Below, one piece after another: positions 8,340-58,068 of a stretch of DNA of 59,444 bases. Position numbers and translations under genes: made by a program. Numbering within the stretch: position 1 is the first letter of the stretch; every line of letters starts with the position of its first letter. The notes under the pieces are model-generated. The model saw only the letters and a program-made list of their open reading frames with translations. It ran no database searches and had not been told where the DNA came from. Location of the stretch: positions 93,608,774-93,668,217 of the forward strand of contig NC_057718.1 of assembly GCF_004010195.1 (NCBI RefSeq). The letters run 5' to 3'. The stretch is from Chiloscyllium plagiosum (Eukaryota).

Positions 8340-8830
8340 CTGAACAGAAATAGGCCATTCAGCCCACAATGCTGTCGCATTCATTCGTATTGGTCAATCT
8401 GACAAACCCCAACACCACTATTATTCCTTATCACAATAACCCTTGATTCCCACGTGTCTCTCTCAGGCTTGAATGTACTTAATAGCACAGTCTTGACAGC
8501 CCTCTGTGGTAAAGAATTCTACAAATCTATTACCTTCTCAGAGACGAAATTCCTCCTGACCTCTTACTGAAAAGTATAACCCCTTGTTCTGAAATTCTGC
8601 CCTAGACACTCGCGCAAGAGGAAACAACCTCTCTGCATCTATCCTGTCATATCCATGAACAATCTTCGAGGTTTCAATAAAGTGGTCCTTCATTCTTCTA
8701 TGTGCCAATGAACATAAGCACAATGCCATAAGCTCAATCTTTCCTTGTATGGCAATTCCTCCACAGCCAGGATCAGCCTCATGAACCTTCCCTGAGTTGC
8801 CTTCAATTCAGCACGTAGTTCCTTAGATAA
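8340..8830 (-). mobile_element. CR1-clade LINE 3' fragment
   Basis: ORF 8538..8729(-) RRMKDHFIETSKIVHGYDRIDAERLFPL. Confidence 0.8.
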
Positions 8831-9788
8831 GGGATGTTGTGAAACCTGAAACGGTTCAGAAAAGATTTACAAGGATCTTGCTAGGATTAGAGCTATAGGA
8901 AGACTTAGGATCCTTACAGTGTGGAAGCAGGTCCTTCGGCCCAACAAGCCCACACTGACCCTCCGAGGAGTATCCCACCCATTCCCCAACACTATATTTA
9001 CCCCGAACTAATAACCAACTCCATGGGCAATTTAGAATGGCCAATTCATCTAACCTACACAACTTTGGATTGTTTTAGGAAACTGGAGTACCTGGAGGAA
9101 ACCCACACAGACACAGAGAGAATGTGCAAACTCCACACAGACAGTCCCCCAAGGTTGGAGTCGAACCCAGGTCCCTGGCACTGTGAGGCAGAAATGATAA
9201 CTACTGAGCCACCATGCCACCCTGAATAAGCTGAGGTTATTTTCCCTGGAGTGTCGGAGGCTGAGGGGTAACCTTATAGAGGTCTATAAAATTATGATGG
9301 ACATGGATAGGGTGTATAGCCAAGATCTTTTGCCCAGGGTAGGGGGAGTCCAAAACTAGAGGTCATTGATTTATGGTGAGAGGGAAGACTTTTTCATGCA
9401 GAGAGTGTTACGTGAATGAAATGAGCTGCCAGAGGAAGTGATGGAGGCTGGTACAATTATAACATTTAAAAGGCATCTGGATGGGTATAAGACTAGGAAG
9501 AGTTTAGTGGGATATGGGCCAAATGCTGGCAAATGGGACTAGATTAATTTAGGACATCTGGTTGGCATGCAGATGGTAAGGGGGAGTACTGTAAAAAGGA
9601 CTTGGGGTGGGGAGATGTAAGAGTAAAGGGAATTCTACCTTTTACTCTGCATGTAGCTACTGAGCATGTGTGATTTAAATTAAGTCATGGTGCGGTCAGA
9701 TCACTTGGAATTGGAGGCTAGGTCTGTTGGCCTGCAAGCAAGATATCCCATCTTACTGTCCTCTACAAATGGTTATGTTCAATTTTCT
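8820..9788 (+). repeat. 969-bp direct duplication, copy 1
   Basis: tccttagataaggg...ttcaattttct matches 10105-11073 apart from about 10 substitutions counted by eye. Confidence 0.97.
8831..9570 (+). mobile_element. HER1/CR1 LINE 3' fragment with antisense HE1 SINE inserted (8905-9222)
   Basis: DVVKPE.VQKRFTR..LFSLECRRLRGNLIEVYKI..NELPEEVMEAGT; the HE1 reverse complement interrupts it. Confidence 0.9.
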
Positions 9789-10106
9789 GAGGAGAAAGTG
9801 AGGACTGCAGATGCTGGAGATCAGAGCTGAAAATGTGTTGCTGGAAAAGCGCAGCAGGTCAGGCAGCATCCAGGGAACAGGAGAAACGACGTTTCCGGCA
9901 TAAGCCCTTCTTCAGGAATGAGGAAAGTTTGTCCAGCAGGCTAAGATAACTTCTCCTGCTGAACACTCTCTGCTCATTCCTGAAGAAGGGCCTGTGCCCG
10001 AAACGTCGAGTCTCCTGTTCCCTAGATGCTGCCTGACCTGCTGTGCTGTTCCAGCAATAAAGTTTCAACTTTGATCTCCAGCATCTGCAGACCTCACTTT
10101 CTCCTC
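9789..10106. mobile_element. fold-back (inverted pair) PLE-terminus insertion with two hammerhead cores
   Basis: Left arm gaggagaaagtgaggactgcagatgctggagatc.. is the reverse complement of right arm ..gatctccagcatctgcagacctcactttctcctc; cores at 9884-9919(-) and 9976-10011(+). Confidence 0.9.
9976..10011 (+). ncRNA. minimal type I hammerhead ribozyme motif (PLE-associated)
   Basis: attc-CTGAAGA-a-gggc-ctgt-gccc-GAAA-cg-TC-gagt: intact core, 4-bp stem II, palindromic ACGU stem III, GUC cleavage triplet. Confidence 0.75.
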
Positions 10107-11073
10107 CTTAGATAAGGGATGTTGTGAAACCTGAAAGGGTTCAGAAAAGATTTACAAGGATCTTGCTAGGATTAGAGCTATAGGAAGACTTAGGATCCTT
10201 ACAGTGTGGAAGCAGGTCCTTCGGCCCAACAAGCCCACACTGACCCTCCGAGGAGTATCCCACCCATTCCCCAACACTATATTTACCCCGAACTAATAAC
10301 CAACTCAATGGGCAATTTAGAATGGCCAATTCATCTAACCTACACAACTTTGGATTGCTTTAGGAAACTGGAGTACCTGGAGGAAACCCACACAGACACA
10401 GAGAGAATGTGCAAACTCCACACAGACAGTCCCCCAAGGTTGGAGTCGAACCCAGGTCCCTGGCACTGTGAGGCAGAAATGATAACTACTGAGCCACCAT
10501 GCCACCCTGAATAAGCTGAGGTTATTTTCCCTGGAGTGTCGGAGGCTGAGGGGTAACCTTATAGAGGTCTATAAAATTATGATGGACATGGATAGGGTGT
10601 ATAGCCAAGATCTTTTACCCAGGGTAGGGGGAGTCCAAAACTAGAGGTCATTGATTTATGGTGAGAGGGAAGACTTTTTCATGCAGAGAGTGTTACATGA
10701 ATGAAATGAGCTGCCAGAGGAAGTGATGGAGGCTGGTACAATTATAACATTTAAAAGGCATCTGGATGGGTATAAGACTAGGAAGAGTTTAGAGGGATAT
10801 GGGCCAAATGCTAGCAAATGGGACTAGATTAATTTAGGACATTTGGTTGGCATGCAGATGGTAAGGGGGAGTACTGTAAAAAGGACTTGGGGTGGGGAGA
10901 TGTAAGAGTAAAGGGAATTCTACCTTTTACTCTGCATGTAGCTACTGAGCATGTGTGATTTAAATTAAGTCATGGTGCGGTCAGATCACTTGGAATTGGA
11001 GGCGAGGTCTGTTGGCCTGCAAGCAAAATATCCCATCTTACTGTCCTCTACAAATGGTTATGTTCAATTTTCT
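10105..11073 (+). repeat. 969-bp direct duplication, copy 2 (HER1 10116-10855, HE1 10190-10507 on minus)
   Basis: Same sequence as 8820-9788; duplicated ORFs 8921..9229 and 10206..10514 have identical translations. Confidence 0.97.
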
Positions 11074-11220
11074 CCCATACAAGTATGTTAACCTCACATT
11101 ACTACACACACCTAGTTGGAAACAAAGGACCTTACTCCTGCCGAGAAGCAGATGGATCAGAAAATCATTATACTTGGTGCACCCAGAGTCACATAAAGAC
11201 TACTGGATGCTGGATCAACC

Positions 11221-17622: not shown

Positions 17623-18631
17623 AAGCATGTCAGACCTATATCTTCTTGGCTATGTTGCACTCTGGCTTAATTCAAGGTGCCTCAACCAGGCACTATATCA
17701 GAATGCCCATTTAACCTCTATGGCTATGTGATATTGTACCCTCAGGGCACACTAATCACTGATGCACATGTAGTTCACTTACTTCTCTGCTGATAATGAG
17801 GCTTTGGCGGGCAACAAGAGCAAAAGCAGCAGCCAAATGAGTGAACGTTCCTGCCTTCAGGAATGCACTGTGCAGTCACTATGGAGCCACAAAAATCACA
17901 TTTACCGCTCCGGTCTGGAGTTTATCTTTTCCTTTCGGCAATTTTCCCCTTCTGCTGTCATCATTAGAGTTAAGAATTTGATGAATGTCTGCAGAGCGAC
18001 AGCAAATTGATTATTTTACAGCGTTCATTCACAGCGCTGCTATTGATTCCTCAGGAAGGAGAAAGGTGCACAGCCCTCGGTGAATGAGGGAGACTCTGAG
18101 GTGAAGAGGTGCTTGGCAGAGGAAATTGCGTTTTACTGAGAGAGGGCCAAAGCTGCAATCCTGTTTGTCTTCAGGAGCCAATAAAAATGTTCAGTCGAGC
18201 CAATATTTGCCACATTTGCCCTCTTCAGACAATGATATCTTTTAACCCACAATCTTTTATTCCTCTGCGAAAAAGGGATGACTTGTAACTGCTCATTCAC
18301 TTATTTAGACTGAGTGGAGCCCAGTTGACTTTTGACCTCGATATCAAACAATCCATTTATTTTGCTTCTTGCATACTTTGACATCAGCCAAGGTACTCAG
18401 GTCTGTTGCAAAAACCAAGCGTCTGCCCATGAGATGGCAAGAGAAAATCAGATGACTGTTTGTTTGAAGCAGAAATTTGGCAGATACTTGATAAGTATTG
18501 AGGGTACGGCTGGCATCATGTAATCATTACTCACTGTTTGACCTAATCTCGTGATTTGTTTTCCCTGCGCTGTCCTTCTTCCTGGTGTTTCAGTGAAGGA
18601 AGTAAGGGTTTGTGTGTTTTTGCTGTTGCAA

Positions 18632-18855
18632 AGTTAAAAATCACACAACACCAGGTTATAGTCCAACAGTTTTAATTGGAAGCACACTAGCTTTCGGAGC
18701 GACGTTCCTTCATCAGGTGAAGGAGCGTCGCTCCGAAAGCTAGTATGCTTCCAATTAAACCTGTTGGACTATAACCTGGTGTTGTGTGATTTTTAACATT
18801 GTACACCCCAGTCCAACACCGGCATCTCCAAATCATGACTACTATCGACACCACA
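18632..18855. mobile_element. fold-back Neptune-type PLE terminus insertion, 13-bp TSD
   Basis: aaaaatcacacaacaccaggttatagtccaacag..ctttcggagcgacg inverted against cgtcgctccgaaag..ctgttggactataacctggtgttgtgtgattttt; TSD tttgctgttgcaa at 18619-18631 and 18856-18868. Confidence 0.88.
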
Positions 18856-20527: not shown

Positions 20528-20799
20528 CAGGAATATAGAGTGAGAGGACACTAAAAAATCTGAGGCAATATCACAGATCATCCTTATCCTGTGGAGTCGG
20601 CCTTTACTTGAAGATCTTCGAACTTAGCTGGATTGGGACGGACTCCATGGATGGAGTAAGTGGACTTCTAAAATGTTGTCCAGTGGATATTGACCGAACA
20701 CTTCAGGCTGTTAAATACTAAACCATATTGTTGTACTGCTGCCATCTATCAGTGAATCTTATGATCAGTCTCTGCCTCATGATCAGTCTCTGATCATGG

Positions 20800-23721: not shown

Positions 23722-23901
23722 AGTTATAAATCACACAACAACAGGTTCATTTGGAAGCACTAGCTTTCGGAGTGCTGCTTTTTCATGAGGTGGTTGCACT
23801 CTGGAAGCTAGTGCTTCTTAATAAACCTGGTCGACTATAAGCTGGTGTTATGTGATTTTTAACTTTGTACATCCCAGTCCAACACCAGCATTTCTAAATC
23901 A
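23722..23901. mobile_element. fold-back Neptune-type PLE terminus insertion, 12-bp TSD
   Basis: Inverted arms around gaagcactagc / gctagtgcttc; TSD ttaaagattcaa at 23710-23721 and 23902-23913. Confidence 0.82.
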
Positions 23902-26070: not shown

Positions 26071-28681
26071 TTAGATGATTTTCCTGTGGATGCATACAGT
26101 TTCATTTCCACTGGCTAATTTTTTTTTGGATCCTGCCTTTGACTGCCACCTCGTTAACACACTCCTTCACATCTGGTTGATTAATGCCAGATCTGAAAGA
26201 TTTTTTAAAAGCAACATTCAAGCCGTTGGTAAACCTTGGATGAATGGCTGAGAGTGTTGGGATGAACGATTTATGGGCTGGAAGCAACTCCAGTCTGGTA
26301 AGGAAGCAGCTCATTGGGATTTTCCTCACAAATCTATTGCAAAAACCCATTCTCCCCATCCTTATGCACAGGAACAGATGGCAGGAAACAGTTTACATGT
26401 GCCAAACAGAAAGTCCCCCAAACTAAAACAAAAAACAGATTCTTGCTCCTTAACAAAAAAATGTTGTGTGTGGCTGTAACCTCTGAAGAACATGGTCTTT
26501 CATTTTTAACATAAATAGCTATTTAGCATGCCTGGAATCTTTGCCTTTAAAACCCTGCATTTCTATCAGTCCATATTTGAATTTTCAATACCGTCCAACC
26601 ACTCTCTTTGCAAAAAGTTATGTTATCCAACTGAATCGTCAAATTCACCTGAAATCATCCAACAATCATAATCTGAATACTGAACAGTATTTATTTTGAG
26701 AATAAAGATGGAAATTTAGGTCGAGATTTAGTGGGAAAAAAAATTGCTTGTCTTGCATACATGAACATCTTTTGAAAATACTAAATGCAGAAGAACCTGA
26801 TTATGATGCATCTTGAAACAAAGAAACAAAGATTTAAGGTTTGCATTCGACAGAGGAGAAGAGTAAGCTTACAAAGCAAGAGGAAAGAGTACCATTGCAG
26901 GGCAGCTATGTGTGTAATTATATCCAGAATGGAACAGGAAAGGACATGATACATAAACATAGAAAAACATAATCACAAAGGAATGAGGATAAGCGAGCTG
27001 GAATAGACTAGAAAAGGAATTGAGAAGCAAAGACAGTTCAGGAACAATGGTGGATATTTAAGAAAATAGTTCATAGCTACACAGAAAAGAAACATTCCAT
27101 TGTGGAAGGAGGATTCTAGGAAGGGGGTCAGCCAATAACAGTTAACCAGGGAAGTTAAGCATGGCATTGAATTGAATGAAAAAAACAAATATGCAGCAAA
27201 AATTAGTGAAAAGTCATAAGATTGGTAAAGCTTTAAAAACCAACAAACAATAACCAAAATCTGGGAGAAGACAAACTTTGAAAGGAAACTTACAAGTAAT
27301 ATCAAGACAGACAGCAAGAACTTCTGTGCACATAGAAAAAGGAAAAGAGAAGCTAAGATGAACATAGATCCCTTAGAGAATAAAACTGGGGAATTAATAA
27401 TAGGAACAAGGATATGGCAGAGGAGTTGAATAAATACTATACATCAGTCTTCAAAGTAGAATACTCTAACGGCATTTCAAAATTACTAAATAATCAAGGG
27501 TAAATGTAGGAGGTGAAATAAATACAGAAGCTATCAACAGAGAAAAGTTCTAGACAAACTAGTGAGGCTAAAGACCAATAGATTCTCTGGACATGATGGA
27601 GTACATGCTAAGATATTAAAGGAAGTAGGCGCAGAGATAATGGATGCACTGGTAGTAATCTCCAGGAATCATGAGATTATGGGAAAATCCCAGAGGATTT
27701 GAAAACTAATATAGTATACCTTGATTTAATAGGTGAAGGAGAAAAAGATTAGGTAATATTGGCAGTTAGTGCACTGTCAGTTATTGGGAAAATGTTGGAG
27801 TCTATTATAAAGGGTGTAATAGCAGAGTGTTTAGAAATATGTAATTAGATCAAGCAGAGCCAGCATGGCTTCATGAAGGGGAAATCATATCTGACAAATT
27901 TACTAGAATTCTTTGAATAGGATAGATAAAGGGGAAGCAGTGGATGTACTATGTTTGGATTTTCAGAAAATGTTTGCTAAGTTACCAGATATTAGGCTAC
28001 TGAATCTAATATGGAACCCATGCAGCTGGAGACAGCATGTTGTCATGGATAGAGCAAAAGGTGAAATACTGCTTATGTTGGAAATCAGAAACTAGCACAG
28101 AGAATGCTGGAGAAACTCAGCAAGTCTGTTATGACCTATGGAGAGAGAAATACAGTTAATGCTTTAAATCCAGTCGACTGTTCCCTCAAACTGGAAGGAC
28201 TGATGGACAGAGGACTGGCTAACTAATAGAAGACATATTTGGGATGGGGGGGGAGCATTTCAGTATGTTTGCCTGTAACTAATGCAGTGCCATAGAGATT
28301 GTGCTGTGGCCACAATTATTTACAATGTACATCCATGGCCTGGATAAAGAAAGTGAAGGCACCTATAGCCTAGCTTGTGAATGACACCAAAATAGGTGCA
28401 AGGCACCTGACGAAGATGACGTAAAAAGTCTTCAGAGAGACATGGTCAATTTAAGTGTGTGGGCAAAAATTTGGTAAATGGAATACGATGTCAAAAAGAT
28501 GACAAAAGGTACTTTGTCAGGAGGAATTGAGGAGCTGAGTTTCATTTGAATGGAGTAAGACTGCAGAAAGAGACAGCTGGGAGGGATTTGGGAGTCCACA
28601 TGCAATGATCACATAAAGCTAGTATCTAATTTCAGTGGGTAATAGAGAAGACAAATTGAATGTTGGCCTTTATTTCATAAG

Positions 28682-28757
28682 CTGAAAATGTGTTGCTGGA
28701 AAAGCGCAGCAACACATTTTTGGCTCTGATCTCCAGCATCTGCAGTCCTCACTTTCT
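28682..28757. mobile_element. 76-bp mini fold-back PLE terminus, 15-bp TSD
   Basis: aaaatgtgttgctg..cagcaacacatttt hairpin; TSD cctttatttcataag at 28667-28681 and 28758-28772. Confidence 0.85.
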
Positions 28758-28807
28758 CCTTTATTTCATAAGGAATGGAGTAAAAATGCAGAGAGGTGTT
28801 GCCAAAA

Positions 28808-29448
28808 CCAAACACAGCCAGAAACCCTAACCACCTTACCATACATCAAAGAAGTTTCAGAAATGACAGCCAGACTACTAAGACCCCTCGGAATCCTAGT
28901 AGCACACAAACCCACCAACACTCTCAAACAAAAACTAACAAACTTAAAAGACCCAGTACAACCCATGGACAAAACCAATGTCATCTACACAATTCCATGC
29001 AAGGACTGCCACAACCACTGCGTAGGACAAACAGGAAGAAAGTTAGCCACCAGGATACACAAACACCAGCTGGCCACAAAAAAGCACGACCCTCTCTCCC
29101 TCATAGCCCTACACACGAAGGAAAAAAACCATTTCGACTGGGACAACACATCTATCCTGGGACAGGCTAAGCAAAGACATGCCAGAGAATTCCTAGAGGC
29201 CTGGCACTCCAACCACAACGCCATAAACAAGCACATAGATCTAGATGCCATCTATCAACCCCTCAGAAAACGAACAGGAAATGACATCACCACAAACCCC
29301 AGGAACCCCATCCAGGACAAACATATAAATAGAAAGCAGGAGACAACAGCTTCGCTTCACTTGGAGGCCGCCACTGATGATGTTACCTAGCCAGGTAATG
29401 AAACGTCTGGATATCAAACCTACAGCTCAGCGAGCCAACCTACACCCT
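28808..29448 (+). mobile_element. Poseidon-type PLE 3' fragment: GIY-YIG endonuclease plus hammerhead terminus
   Basis: ORF 28863..29390 NVIYTIPCKDCHNHCVGQTGRKLATRIHKH..HFDWDNTSIL..REFLEAWHS. Confidence 0.92.
29371..29410 (+). ncRNA. minimal hammerhead ribozyme motif
   Basis: cca-CTGATGA-t-gttacc-tagcca-ggtaat-GAAA-cg-TC-tgg. Confidence 0.7.
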
Positions 29449-37203: not shown

Positions 37204-37276
37204 GGCTCTATAGCTTAATAGTTAGAGCACCAGTCTTGTAAACCAGTGGTTGTGTGTTCAACTTTCACTGGGGCCT
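37204..37276 (+). pseudogene. tRNA-Thr(TGT) pseudogene or tRNA-derived element head
   Basis: ggctctatagcttaatagttagagcaccagtctTGTaaaccagtggttgtgtgttcaactttcactggggcct aligns with vertebrate tRNA-Thr-TGT; anticodon stem, D-loop GG and B-box are mutated. Confidence 0.8.
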
Positions 37277-42831: not shown

Positions 42832-43046
42832 GCAAATGTGTTGCTGGAAAAGCGCAGCACGTCAGACAGCATCCAAGGAACAGGAGAATCGACGTTTCGA
42901 GCATAAACCCTTCTTCAGGAATCCATTTCGGCTTATGCCCGAAACGTCGATTCTCCTGTTCCTTGGATGCTGCCTGACCTGTTGCGCTTTTCCAGTAACA
43001 CATTTTCAGCTATGATCTCCAGCATCTGCAGTCCTCACTTTCTCCT
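42832..43046. mobile_element. fold-back PLE terminus insertion, 15-bp TSD
   Basis: Inverted arms; TSD cttcagcacagggtt at 42817-42831 and 43047-43061. Confidence 0.9.
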
Positions 43047-43536: not shown

Positions 43537-44060
43537 CCACATGCACAAATACACATATACGTTTATGGAGTGAATTTGTACTTGCAGAGTTACATTGTAC
43601 TTTGCTCAAAAACTGCATGAATCCTTGTAAGACTCTGTTCACTCATTTTTTTAGATTAGAATCAGTCTGAACATTATGGCACAGACAACAGCACACAGGG
43701 GGCTAACACCTTCAACACATTATCTAGGCTGACGCCAGTTGTTAAATTTAACCTGAGAATGTAACTTTTAAAAAAGGTTTTGTGATTTACATATGAAAGA
43801 AATGAAACTAACATGGTCATTCTAACAGATGAGAGACTTAACAAACAATCAAGGTATGTTTCAATGTATAATTTCAACTACATCACACTGTAAACGTTTG
43901 CTGTAAATTCGGTGTCTTACAATTGTGTCCTCCACAACCACCTGATGAAGGAGCAGCGCTCCGAAAGCTTGTGGTTCCAATTAAACCTGTTGGACTATAA
44001 CCTGGTGTTGAGTGATTTTTAACTTTGTACACCCCAGTCCAACATCGGCATCTCCAAATC
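43189..44060 (+). mobile_element. Neptune-type PLE 3' end (ORF C-terminus, CA-rich UTR, hammerhead), 12-bp TSD
   Basis: ..EDLNWDLGFMSHYR*; (CA)n at ~43499-43532; TSD ataattgctgaa at 43177-43188 and 44061-44072. Confidence 0.88.
43936..43976 (+). ncRNA. minimal hammerhead ribozyme motif
   Basis: aaccac-CTGATGA-a-ggagc-agc-gctcc-GAAA-gc-TT-gtggtt: 6-bp stem I, 5-bp stem II, palindromic AGCU stem III. Confidence 0.78.
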
Positions 44061-44124
44061 ATAATTGCTGAAATGATTGTAGAATTTGTGTTATTTTGAG
44101 AAGGAACAGGGTGGTTAGCCACAA

Positions 44125-50419: not shown

Positions 50420-51315
50420 CAGTAGGCTATTGTACAAAATGCGAAGGAATGGGATTGTGGGAGATATAGCAGTTTGGATCAGTAATTGGCTTGCTGAAAG
50501 AAGACAGAGGGTGGTGGTTGATGGGAAATGTTCATCCTGGAGTCCAGTTACCAGTGGTGTANNNNNNNNNNNNNNNNNNNNNNNNNNNNNNNNNNNNNNN
50601 NNNNNNNNNNNNNNNNNNNNNNNNNNNNNNNNNNNNNNNNNNNNNNNNNNNNNNNNNNNNNNNNNNNNNNNNNNNNNNNNNNNNNNNNNNNNNNNNNNNN
50701 NNNNNNNNNNNNNNNNNNNNNNNNNNNNNNNNNNNNNNNNNNNNNNNNNNNNNNNNNNNNNNNNNNNNNNNNNNNNNNNNNNNNNNNNNNNNNNNNNNNN
50801 NNNNNNNNNNNNNNNNNNNNNNNNNNNNNNNNNNNNNNNNNNNNNNNNNNNNNNNNNNNNNNNNNNNNNNNNNNNNNNNNNNNNNNNNNNNNNNNNNNNN
50901 NNNNNNNNNNNNNNNNNNNNNNNNNNNNNNNNNNNNNNNNNNNNNNNNNNNNNNNNNATAGAGACATATAAGATAATCAGAGGGTTAGATAGGGTGGACA
51001 GGGAGAGCCTTTTTCCAAGAATGGTGACAGTGAGCACGAGGGGGCATAGCTTTAAATTGAGGGGTGATAGGTATAGGACAGATGTCAGAGGTAGTTTCTT
51101 TACTCAGAGAGTAGTAAGGGTATGGAATGCTTTGCCTGCAACAGTAGTAGATTCGCCAACTTTAAGTACATTTAAATCGTCATTGGACAAGCATATGGAC
51201 GTACATGGAATAGTGTAGGTTAGATGGGCTTCAGATTAGTATAACAGGTTGACACAACATCGAGGGCCGAAGGGCCTGTACTGCGCTGTAATGTTCTACG
51301 TTCTATGTTCTATGC
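50420..51315 (+). mobile_element. young CR1-clade LINE RT fragment spanning the assembly gap
   Basis: WISNWLAERRQRVVVDG..VTSGV [gap] IETYKIIRGLDRVDRESLFP..WNALPATVV; (ttctatg)n tail. Confidence 0.9.
50562..50957. other. assembly gap (396 N)
   Basis: Run of n. Confidence 1.
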
Positions 51316-57499: not shown

Positions 57500-58068
57500 A
57501 GAGAGTCATGGAGCTGTACAGCATGGAAACAGACCCTTCAGTCCAACTTGTCCATGCTAACGAGGTGACCTAAATTAATCTAGTCACATTTGCCAGCACT
57601 TGGCCCATATCCCTCTAAACTCTTCCTATTCAAATGGGAGAAAGTGAGGTCTGCAGATGCTGGAGATCAGAGCTGAAAATGTGTTGCTGGAAAAGCGCAG
57701 CAGGTCAGGCAGCATCCAGGGAACAGGAGAATCGACGTTTCGGGCAAAAGCCCTTCCTATTCAAATGCCCATCCATTGGCCTTTTAAATGCTGTAATTGT
57801 ACCAGCTTCCACCACTTCCTCTGGCAGCTCATTCCATGTACGCACCACCCTCTGTGTGAAATGGTTCCCCTTTAAGTTCCTTTTAAATCTTTCCCCTCTC
57901 ACCCTAAACCAATGCCCCTAGTTTTGGATTTGCCCACCCCTGGAAAAAGACCTTGTCTATTTGCCCTATCCATGCCCCTCATGATTTTATAAACCTCTAT
58001 AAGGCCTCAGTCTCCGACGCACCAGGGAAAAAAGCCCTAGCCTATTTAGCCTCTCCCTGTAGCTCAAA
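57500..58068 (-). mobile_element. HER1/CR1 LINE 3' end
   Basis: RGERFKRNLKGNHFTQRVVRTWNELPEEVVEAGT. Confidence 0.9.
57637..57752 (-). mobile_element. 116-bp PLE terminus insertion, 15-bp TSD, truncated inside the hammerhead
   Basis: TSD cttcctattcaaatg at 57622-57636 and 57753-57767. Confidence 0.9.

Follow-up and report, generated by a model that had tools for sequence, protein, structure and literature searches.

Introduction

The closest described systems are found among the EN+ Penelope-like elements (PLEs), for which a unit of head-to-head truncated termini with a tail is reported as the standard architecture, the tail often being present at one end only (PMC3846280, PMC8557442, PMC11167929). 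The origin of these inverted termini is debated, as a self-priming origin was proposed from one body of work (PMC3846280), while priming on both strands was reported in vitro with a purified PLE protein from the anole, which nicks and extends both strands with no target homology (PMC11167929). According to the same report, the anole protein has two internal start sites, which delimit the tail, and in vitro the start site is the same between strands. Comparable junctions are described for other retroelements. When L1 insertions are concurrent, one of the two reciprocal bridges is reported to carry both poly(A) tails and the other neither, and inverted pairs joined at their 5′ ends are reported too (bioRxiv 10.1101/2024.08.27.596794, PMC13526784, PMC11702581). 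A target-site duplication (TSD) of 126 bp is cited for R9 (PMC9977147).

Here we describe a single locus in a window of 59,444 nt (the whole stretch of Chiloscyllium plagiosum DNA that was analysed) where a double-tailed pair of PLE 3′ ends lies between two 969-bp copies of mostly old repeat DNA. The comparison of this locus with related insertions in the same window suggests that two concurrent insertions may have exchanged partner ends.

Results

A 969-bp direct duplication flanks the insert

Copy A, a duplicated host segment (8820–9788, plus strand), and copy B (10105–11073, plus strand) are direct copies of 969 bp each, which in a pairwise comparison of the assembly sequence differ by 10 substitutions and no indels, and the match between them breaks off abruptly at either end. 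A preliminary description of this DNA had given equal-length direct copies with about 10 substitutions, and both statements proved exact. The pair is the sole repeat in the window that is at least 93% identical and longer than 120 bp. The divergence of the two copies is 1.0% (95% CI 0.5–1.9%), the substitutions are evenly distributed (KS p = 0.6) and six of the ten are transitions. Derived bases are found in both copies, two in A and five in B with three unpolarised, one of the seven polarised sites being polarised weakly. Copy A contains old interspersed repeats at 8833–8892 and 8900–9575, while its remaining ~210 bp are single-copy in the window, and no host gene was identified. No N gap is present at the duplication, as the only run of Ns in the window (50562–50957) is 40 kb away. 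This 396-N gap lies within a LINE-like reading frame and marks the assembly as scaffolded. Elsewhere, positions 37204–37276 hold a solitary tRNA-Thr(TGT)-like sequence, which is either a gene or a pseudogene.

The direct repeat adjoins the insert at both ends, as a true TSD would. The spacer between the copies had been described as a 318-bp inverted pair of PLE termini; the inverted pair is present, but the spacer measures 316 bp (9789–10104), the other 2 nt (TC) being common to the end of the right arm and the start of copy B.

The insert consists of two tailed arms from two templates

The insert is a head-to-head pair of PLE 3′ ends whose arms, at 9789–9945 and 9950–10106, are 87% complementary. 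Sequence comparison delimits the left arm as a tailed PLE 3′ end on the minus strand (9789–9949, with the arm proper reaching 9945) and the right arm as the corresponding tailed end from a divergent variant, on the plus strand (9950–10106), with its last 2 nt common to copy B. The 5′ ends of both arms meet at a central join (9946–9949), where 4 nt lie between the arms and microhomology of 0–4 nt is possible. The insert folds as a hairpin (z = −24.5), has no ORF, and is a stub with no coding capacity. Both arms reach the distal terminus of the family, stopping within 2 nt of the ends of three sibling insertions, which bears out the earlier statement that the 3′ ends face outward and abut the breakpoints.

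The left arm is 95–97% identical to the common young lineage of the window (copies at 57637, 43047, and 28760), while the right arm is 85–91% identical to the same copies. Between the two arms 21 of 152 sites differ (13.8%), far more than the 10 of 969 that differ between the flanking copies (Fisher p = 2e-12). Measured against the young copies, the arms are unequally changed, with 2 differences in the left and 12 in the right (p = 0.013). Differences between the arms span their whole length, and among the 20 innermost aligned sites there are 7. No arm is present at the start of copy A or at the end of copy B, and hence neither arm can be older than the split of A and B, barring a precise deletion. 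With arms that are 13.8% different but flanks that are only 1.0% different, most of the arm difference would therefore have been present already in the templates. It is the flank clock that carries this argument, since the arms of sibling fold-backs differ too and arm divergence alone is non-diagnostic. The comparison thus supports the view that the arms were copied from two different templates, even should the duplication be an assembly artefact, and the differences at diagnostic sites quoted in the preliminary description were all found.

The right arm probably represents a separate PLE lineage, as judged from this single copy, which is the one occurrence of the variant in the window. No further copy came to light: the tail motif and the breakpoint motif had 0 matches in the metagenome, viral, and prokaryote contigs scanned, and a search with the open antisense frame of the variant gave no match except three unrelated repeat proteins. 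The possibility that the right arm is an old decayed copy is disfavoured by its retention of three hammerhead CpGs and of the pairings. The idea that an old fold-back was in place before the duplication was rejected, as the left arm has only two private changes and neither copy carries a second arm. With the second lineage represented by one copy, the locus combines distinct templates, a primed 3′ end at each breakpoint, and joined 5′ ends, the features of a bridge made from two elements.

Hammerhead motifs

A scan with a general hammerhead core pattern predicted a minimal hammerhead motif in each arm, pointing outward in both. The right-arm motif (9975–10016, plus strand) is intact, with 4/4 pairs in stem II, G-C closing, and 4 pairs in stem I, while that of the left arm (9879–9920, minus strand) is damaged at two sites: stem I is broken, and the closing pair of stem II is G.G. 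The hammerhead expected of an EN+ PLE pLTR is therefore present at the motif level, intact on one side and damaged on the other, and the term double hammerhead used earlier is right for one arm and overstated for the pair. No match to the arm hammerheads was obtained in Rfam at the gathering score, and folding of the monomer formed no hammerhead structure.

Sibling fold-backs in the same window

The arm family is represented by ~10 further stubs in the window. Exact flanking repeats of 12–15 bp were found at five of the nine sibling stubs tested and none at the other four, so the TSDs of this length that had been ascribed to the siblings apply to just over half of those tested. All five sibling fold-backs examined have an unpaired extension of 29–58 nt on one side only, the tail-less end lying ~35–40 nt inside the tailed end, and their tailed ends show only 0–3 nt of homology at the junction. 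The arms of these fold-backs differ at 6/76, 3/80, 8/54, 8/74, and 2/19 sites (4–15%). The locus under study has the general EN+ PLE architecture of head-to-head inverted 5′-truncated copies with an optional tail of 30–40 nt. In place of the one-arm tail and 12–15 bp TSD of an ordinary fold-back, however, it has tails on both arms and a 969-bp flanking repeat. The duplication and the insert are thus confirmed as real in the assembly and distinct from the siblings.

Elsewhere in the window, a remnant of a PLE-type ORF (C-terminal part, 28785–29387) is 59–69% identical to the best carpet-shark proteins. These proteins are RT-bearing, and weak GIY-YIG hits, below the cut-off, were seen in two of the three that were scanned. 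The remnant ends in a different terminus from that of the arm family, and its link to the arms is indirect. At ~30 bp upstream of the remnant is a young fold-back of 76 bp, flanked by a 15-bp TSD (28680–29390).

Several other features of the siblings were observed. The fold-back at 42832–43046 has an exact 15-bp TSD and arms that differ at 6/76 sites, and all six differences have C on the element sense strand in one arm (5 C/T and 1 C/G). Across the four TSD-bearing siblings the arms differ at 19/229 sites and the TSDs, which were found by exact match, at 0, a contrast that could come from ascertainment or from a strand bias in the mutation of fold-back arms. The one-tailed fold-back layout recurs in a second family of PLE-like termini (18629–18855, 23722–23901, and 43939–44062), with TSDs of 12–13 bp at two of its three copies. 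An older PLE stub is preceded on its 5′ side by about three repeats of a short unit (20757–20797) and followed on its 3′ side by a degenerate copy of that unit, an arrangement that looks like a stuttered TSD. The independent tailed-end sites at 57622–57767 and 11062–11083 have the identical 5 nt just past the inferred nick (n = 2), possibly through an endonuclease preference. A pyrimidine-A step is found 3–4 nt past the inferred nick at 5/5 tailed ends, an observation made post hoc and given no weight.

Discussion

A proposed origin by cross-joined insertions

The 969-bp tandem duplication is best explained, with a probability of roughly 0.45, by the cross-joining of two PLE insertions that were under way at the same time, on sister chromatids or on homologues, which would make it the product of an unequal exchange and not a true TSD. 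In an ordinary event, as it would proceed in this window, the strands are cut 12–15 bp apart and prime one tailed and one tail-less cDNA. One such event at 9788 would leave a left piece capped by a tailed cDNA, while another, located at 8820 of the other chromatid, would leave a right piece that opens with a tailed cDNA. End-joining of the cDNA 3′ ends would then give the observed order of left flank, A, arm, arm, B, and right flank, and the reciprocal product would be a ~940-bp deletion bridged by two tail-less arms. The breakpoints are placed as they would be if the top strand had been nicked at 9788|9789 and the bottom strand at 8819|8820. Two target-primed events ~1 kb apart on opposite strands had been proposed before, and the two outward primed 3′ ends and the nick geometry agree with that proposal; its other element, a TSD generated on a single duplex, fits the two tailed arms less well than cross-joining does. 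The preference for cross-joining over a single-duplex TSD follows from the tails, which are present on both arms here but on only one arm of the siblings. A single PLE dimer could perhaps also yield two tailed arms, by analogy with the anole protein, whose start site is alike on both strands in vitro, and two simultaneous insertions no more than 1 kb apart would a priori be rare.

Joining between sister chromatids has the same final sequence as a long TSD formed on one duplex, in which single nicks on opposite strands 969 bp apart would prime two PLE cDNAs that are joined, with the interval duplicated by strand displacement or by a passing fork. The nick geometry matches such an event exactly, Dualen-4b insertions are reported to give TSD-like duplications with a median of 900 bp (PMC9977147), and extension of both strands is described for a PLE protein (PMC11167929). 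This origin is nevertheless unlikely, given that the stagger of the siblings is tight (12–15 bp at 5/9 stubs), that each complex must halt after a single nick, and that unwinding of ~1 kb is required; were a fork to do the unwinding, the model would merge into cross-joining. The duplication might instead have been created during assembly, if an insertion at 9788 in one allele and another at 8820 in the other were stitched together by the assembler or a gap filler. A divergence of 1% with no indels is compatible with alleles, the gap elsewhere in the window indicates a scaffolded assembly, and false duplicates are reported to be linked sometimes through wrongly filled gaps. The junctions are not confirmed by the public runs: of the 24 listed, eight contained at least half of the sampled words and the best contained 0.67 of 266, values that cannot separate a filled from an empty allele because the empty-site allele itself might carry 0.76–0.81. 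False duplicates are, however, reported to be most often separated by a gap, and there is none at the locus. An artefact would moreover require that two insertions no more than 1 kb apart be polymorphic and correctly oriented, an assembler would find no long overlap to exploit at the central join (among the 20 innermost sites, 7 differ), and the differences between A and B are substitutions only, with derived bases in both copies. Stitched alleles are on this evidence an improbable source of the locus.

Two further routes would involve a local copying error or an exchange between finished insertions. In the first, a single insertion would have occurred at the right-hand site, and a local switch of template would then have copied the 969 bp upstream once more; this would account for a 7-nt match to the end of the element tail at the junction of the B end with the right flank (rough chance 0.7%, post hoc). 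Part of this match may come from target preference, because the sibling at 57637 has the identical 5 nt past its inferred nick, and 0–3 nt of homology is enough for the tailed ends of siblings. A template switch also implies a stagger of at most 5 bp, unlike the siblings, and a switch precisely at the tail end, and it is regarded as quite improbable. The second is unequal crossing-over, an established process, in which fold-back insertions already completed on different homologues would undergo homologous recombination and produce the same overall arrangement. A crossover within an arm would, however, make the inner parts of the arms alike, whereas 7 of the innermost 20 sites differ, and this route is very improbable. 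Cross-joining of two concurrent insertions therefore remains the preferred reading.

It is a doubtful but testable extension that an exchange of partner ends between concurrent PLE insertions takes place regularly in the germline of sharks, giving inherited kilobase duplications with double-tailed fold-backs and reciprocal deletions with tail-less ones, where the flank would date the event and the arms would come from two separate RNAs with no self-priming. If recurrent, such events would mean that PLEs generate inherited duplications and deletions of kilobase size in vertebrates rich in these elements, as L1 generates rearrangements in tumours. For the debate on inverted termini, a 969-bp duplication provides a clock that is beyond the reach of a 15-bp TSD, and here this clock points to two templates. 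The evidence comes from one locus at which mostly old repeats were duplicated.

Comparison with known systems

Close analogues of the locus exist in other retroelements, while the PLE version is without precedent in the literature found: a search of mainly open-access sources (including PMC9516828 and PMC12016303) located no account of a PLE flanked by a duplication of kilobase length or of PLE arms copied from two templates. The insert resembles an EN+ PLE unit with an inverted pLTR, as described, in its head-to-head truncated termini, hammerhead motif, 30–40 nt tail, and outward 3′ ends, and differs in that both arms are tailed and come from two templates. The flanking duplication is 969 bp here, compared with 9–10 bp reported for rotifer EN+ PLEs and 12–15 bp for the siblings in the window. 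The self-priming origin proposed for inverted termini (PMC3846280) fits poorly here because the two arms are so different.

As in Dualen-4b_cRei, a direct duplication of ~900 bp lies on either side of the retroelement insert. Dualen-4b_cRei, however, is a LINE that has two endonucleases and makes long duplications recurrently, and two-template fold-back inserts are not among the features described for it in the account consulted (PMC9977147). A retro-insert at the junction of a tandem duplication, with joining of sisters invoked, is also reported for L1 sister-chromatid bridging, in that case from one L1 event and a pre-existing break, over 22.6 Mb in a tumour (PMC7058536). The locus is also like the bridges ascribed to synchronous L1 retrotransposition, which are reported to have 5′-joined cDNA pieces, a primed 3′ end at each breakpoint, and often little or no homology at the join (bioRxiv 10.1101/2024.08.27.596794, PMC13526784, PMC11702581); the bioRxiv study includes 14 bridges of a duplication-like kind. 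The L1 bridges are somatic or from cell lines, and the two-tailed examples in the accounts consulted are translocations and a Mb inversion, whereas the bridge proposed here is formed by PLEs, underlies a 1-kb tandem duplication, and was presumably inherited.
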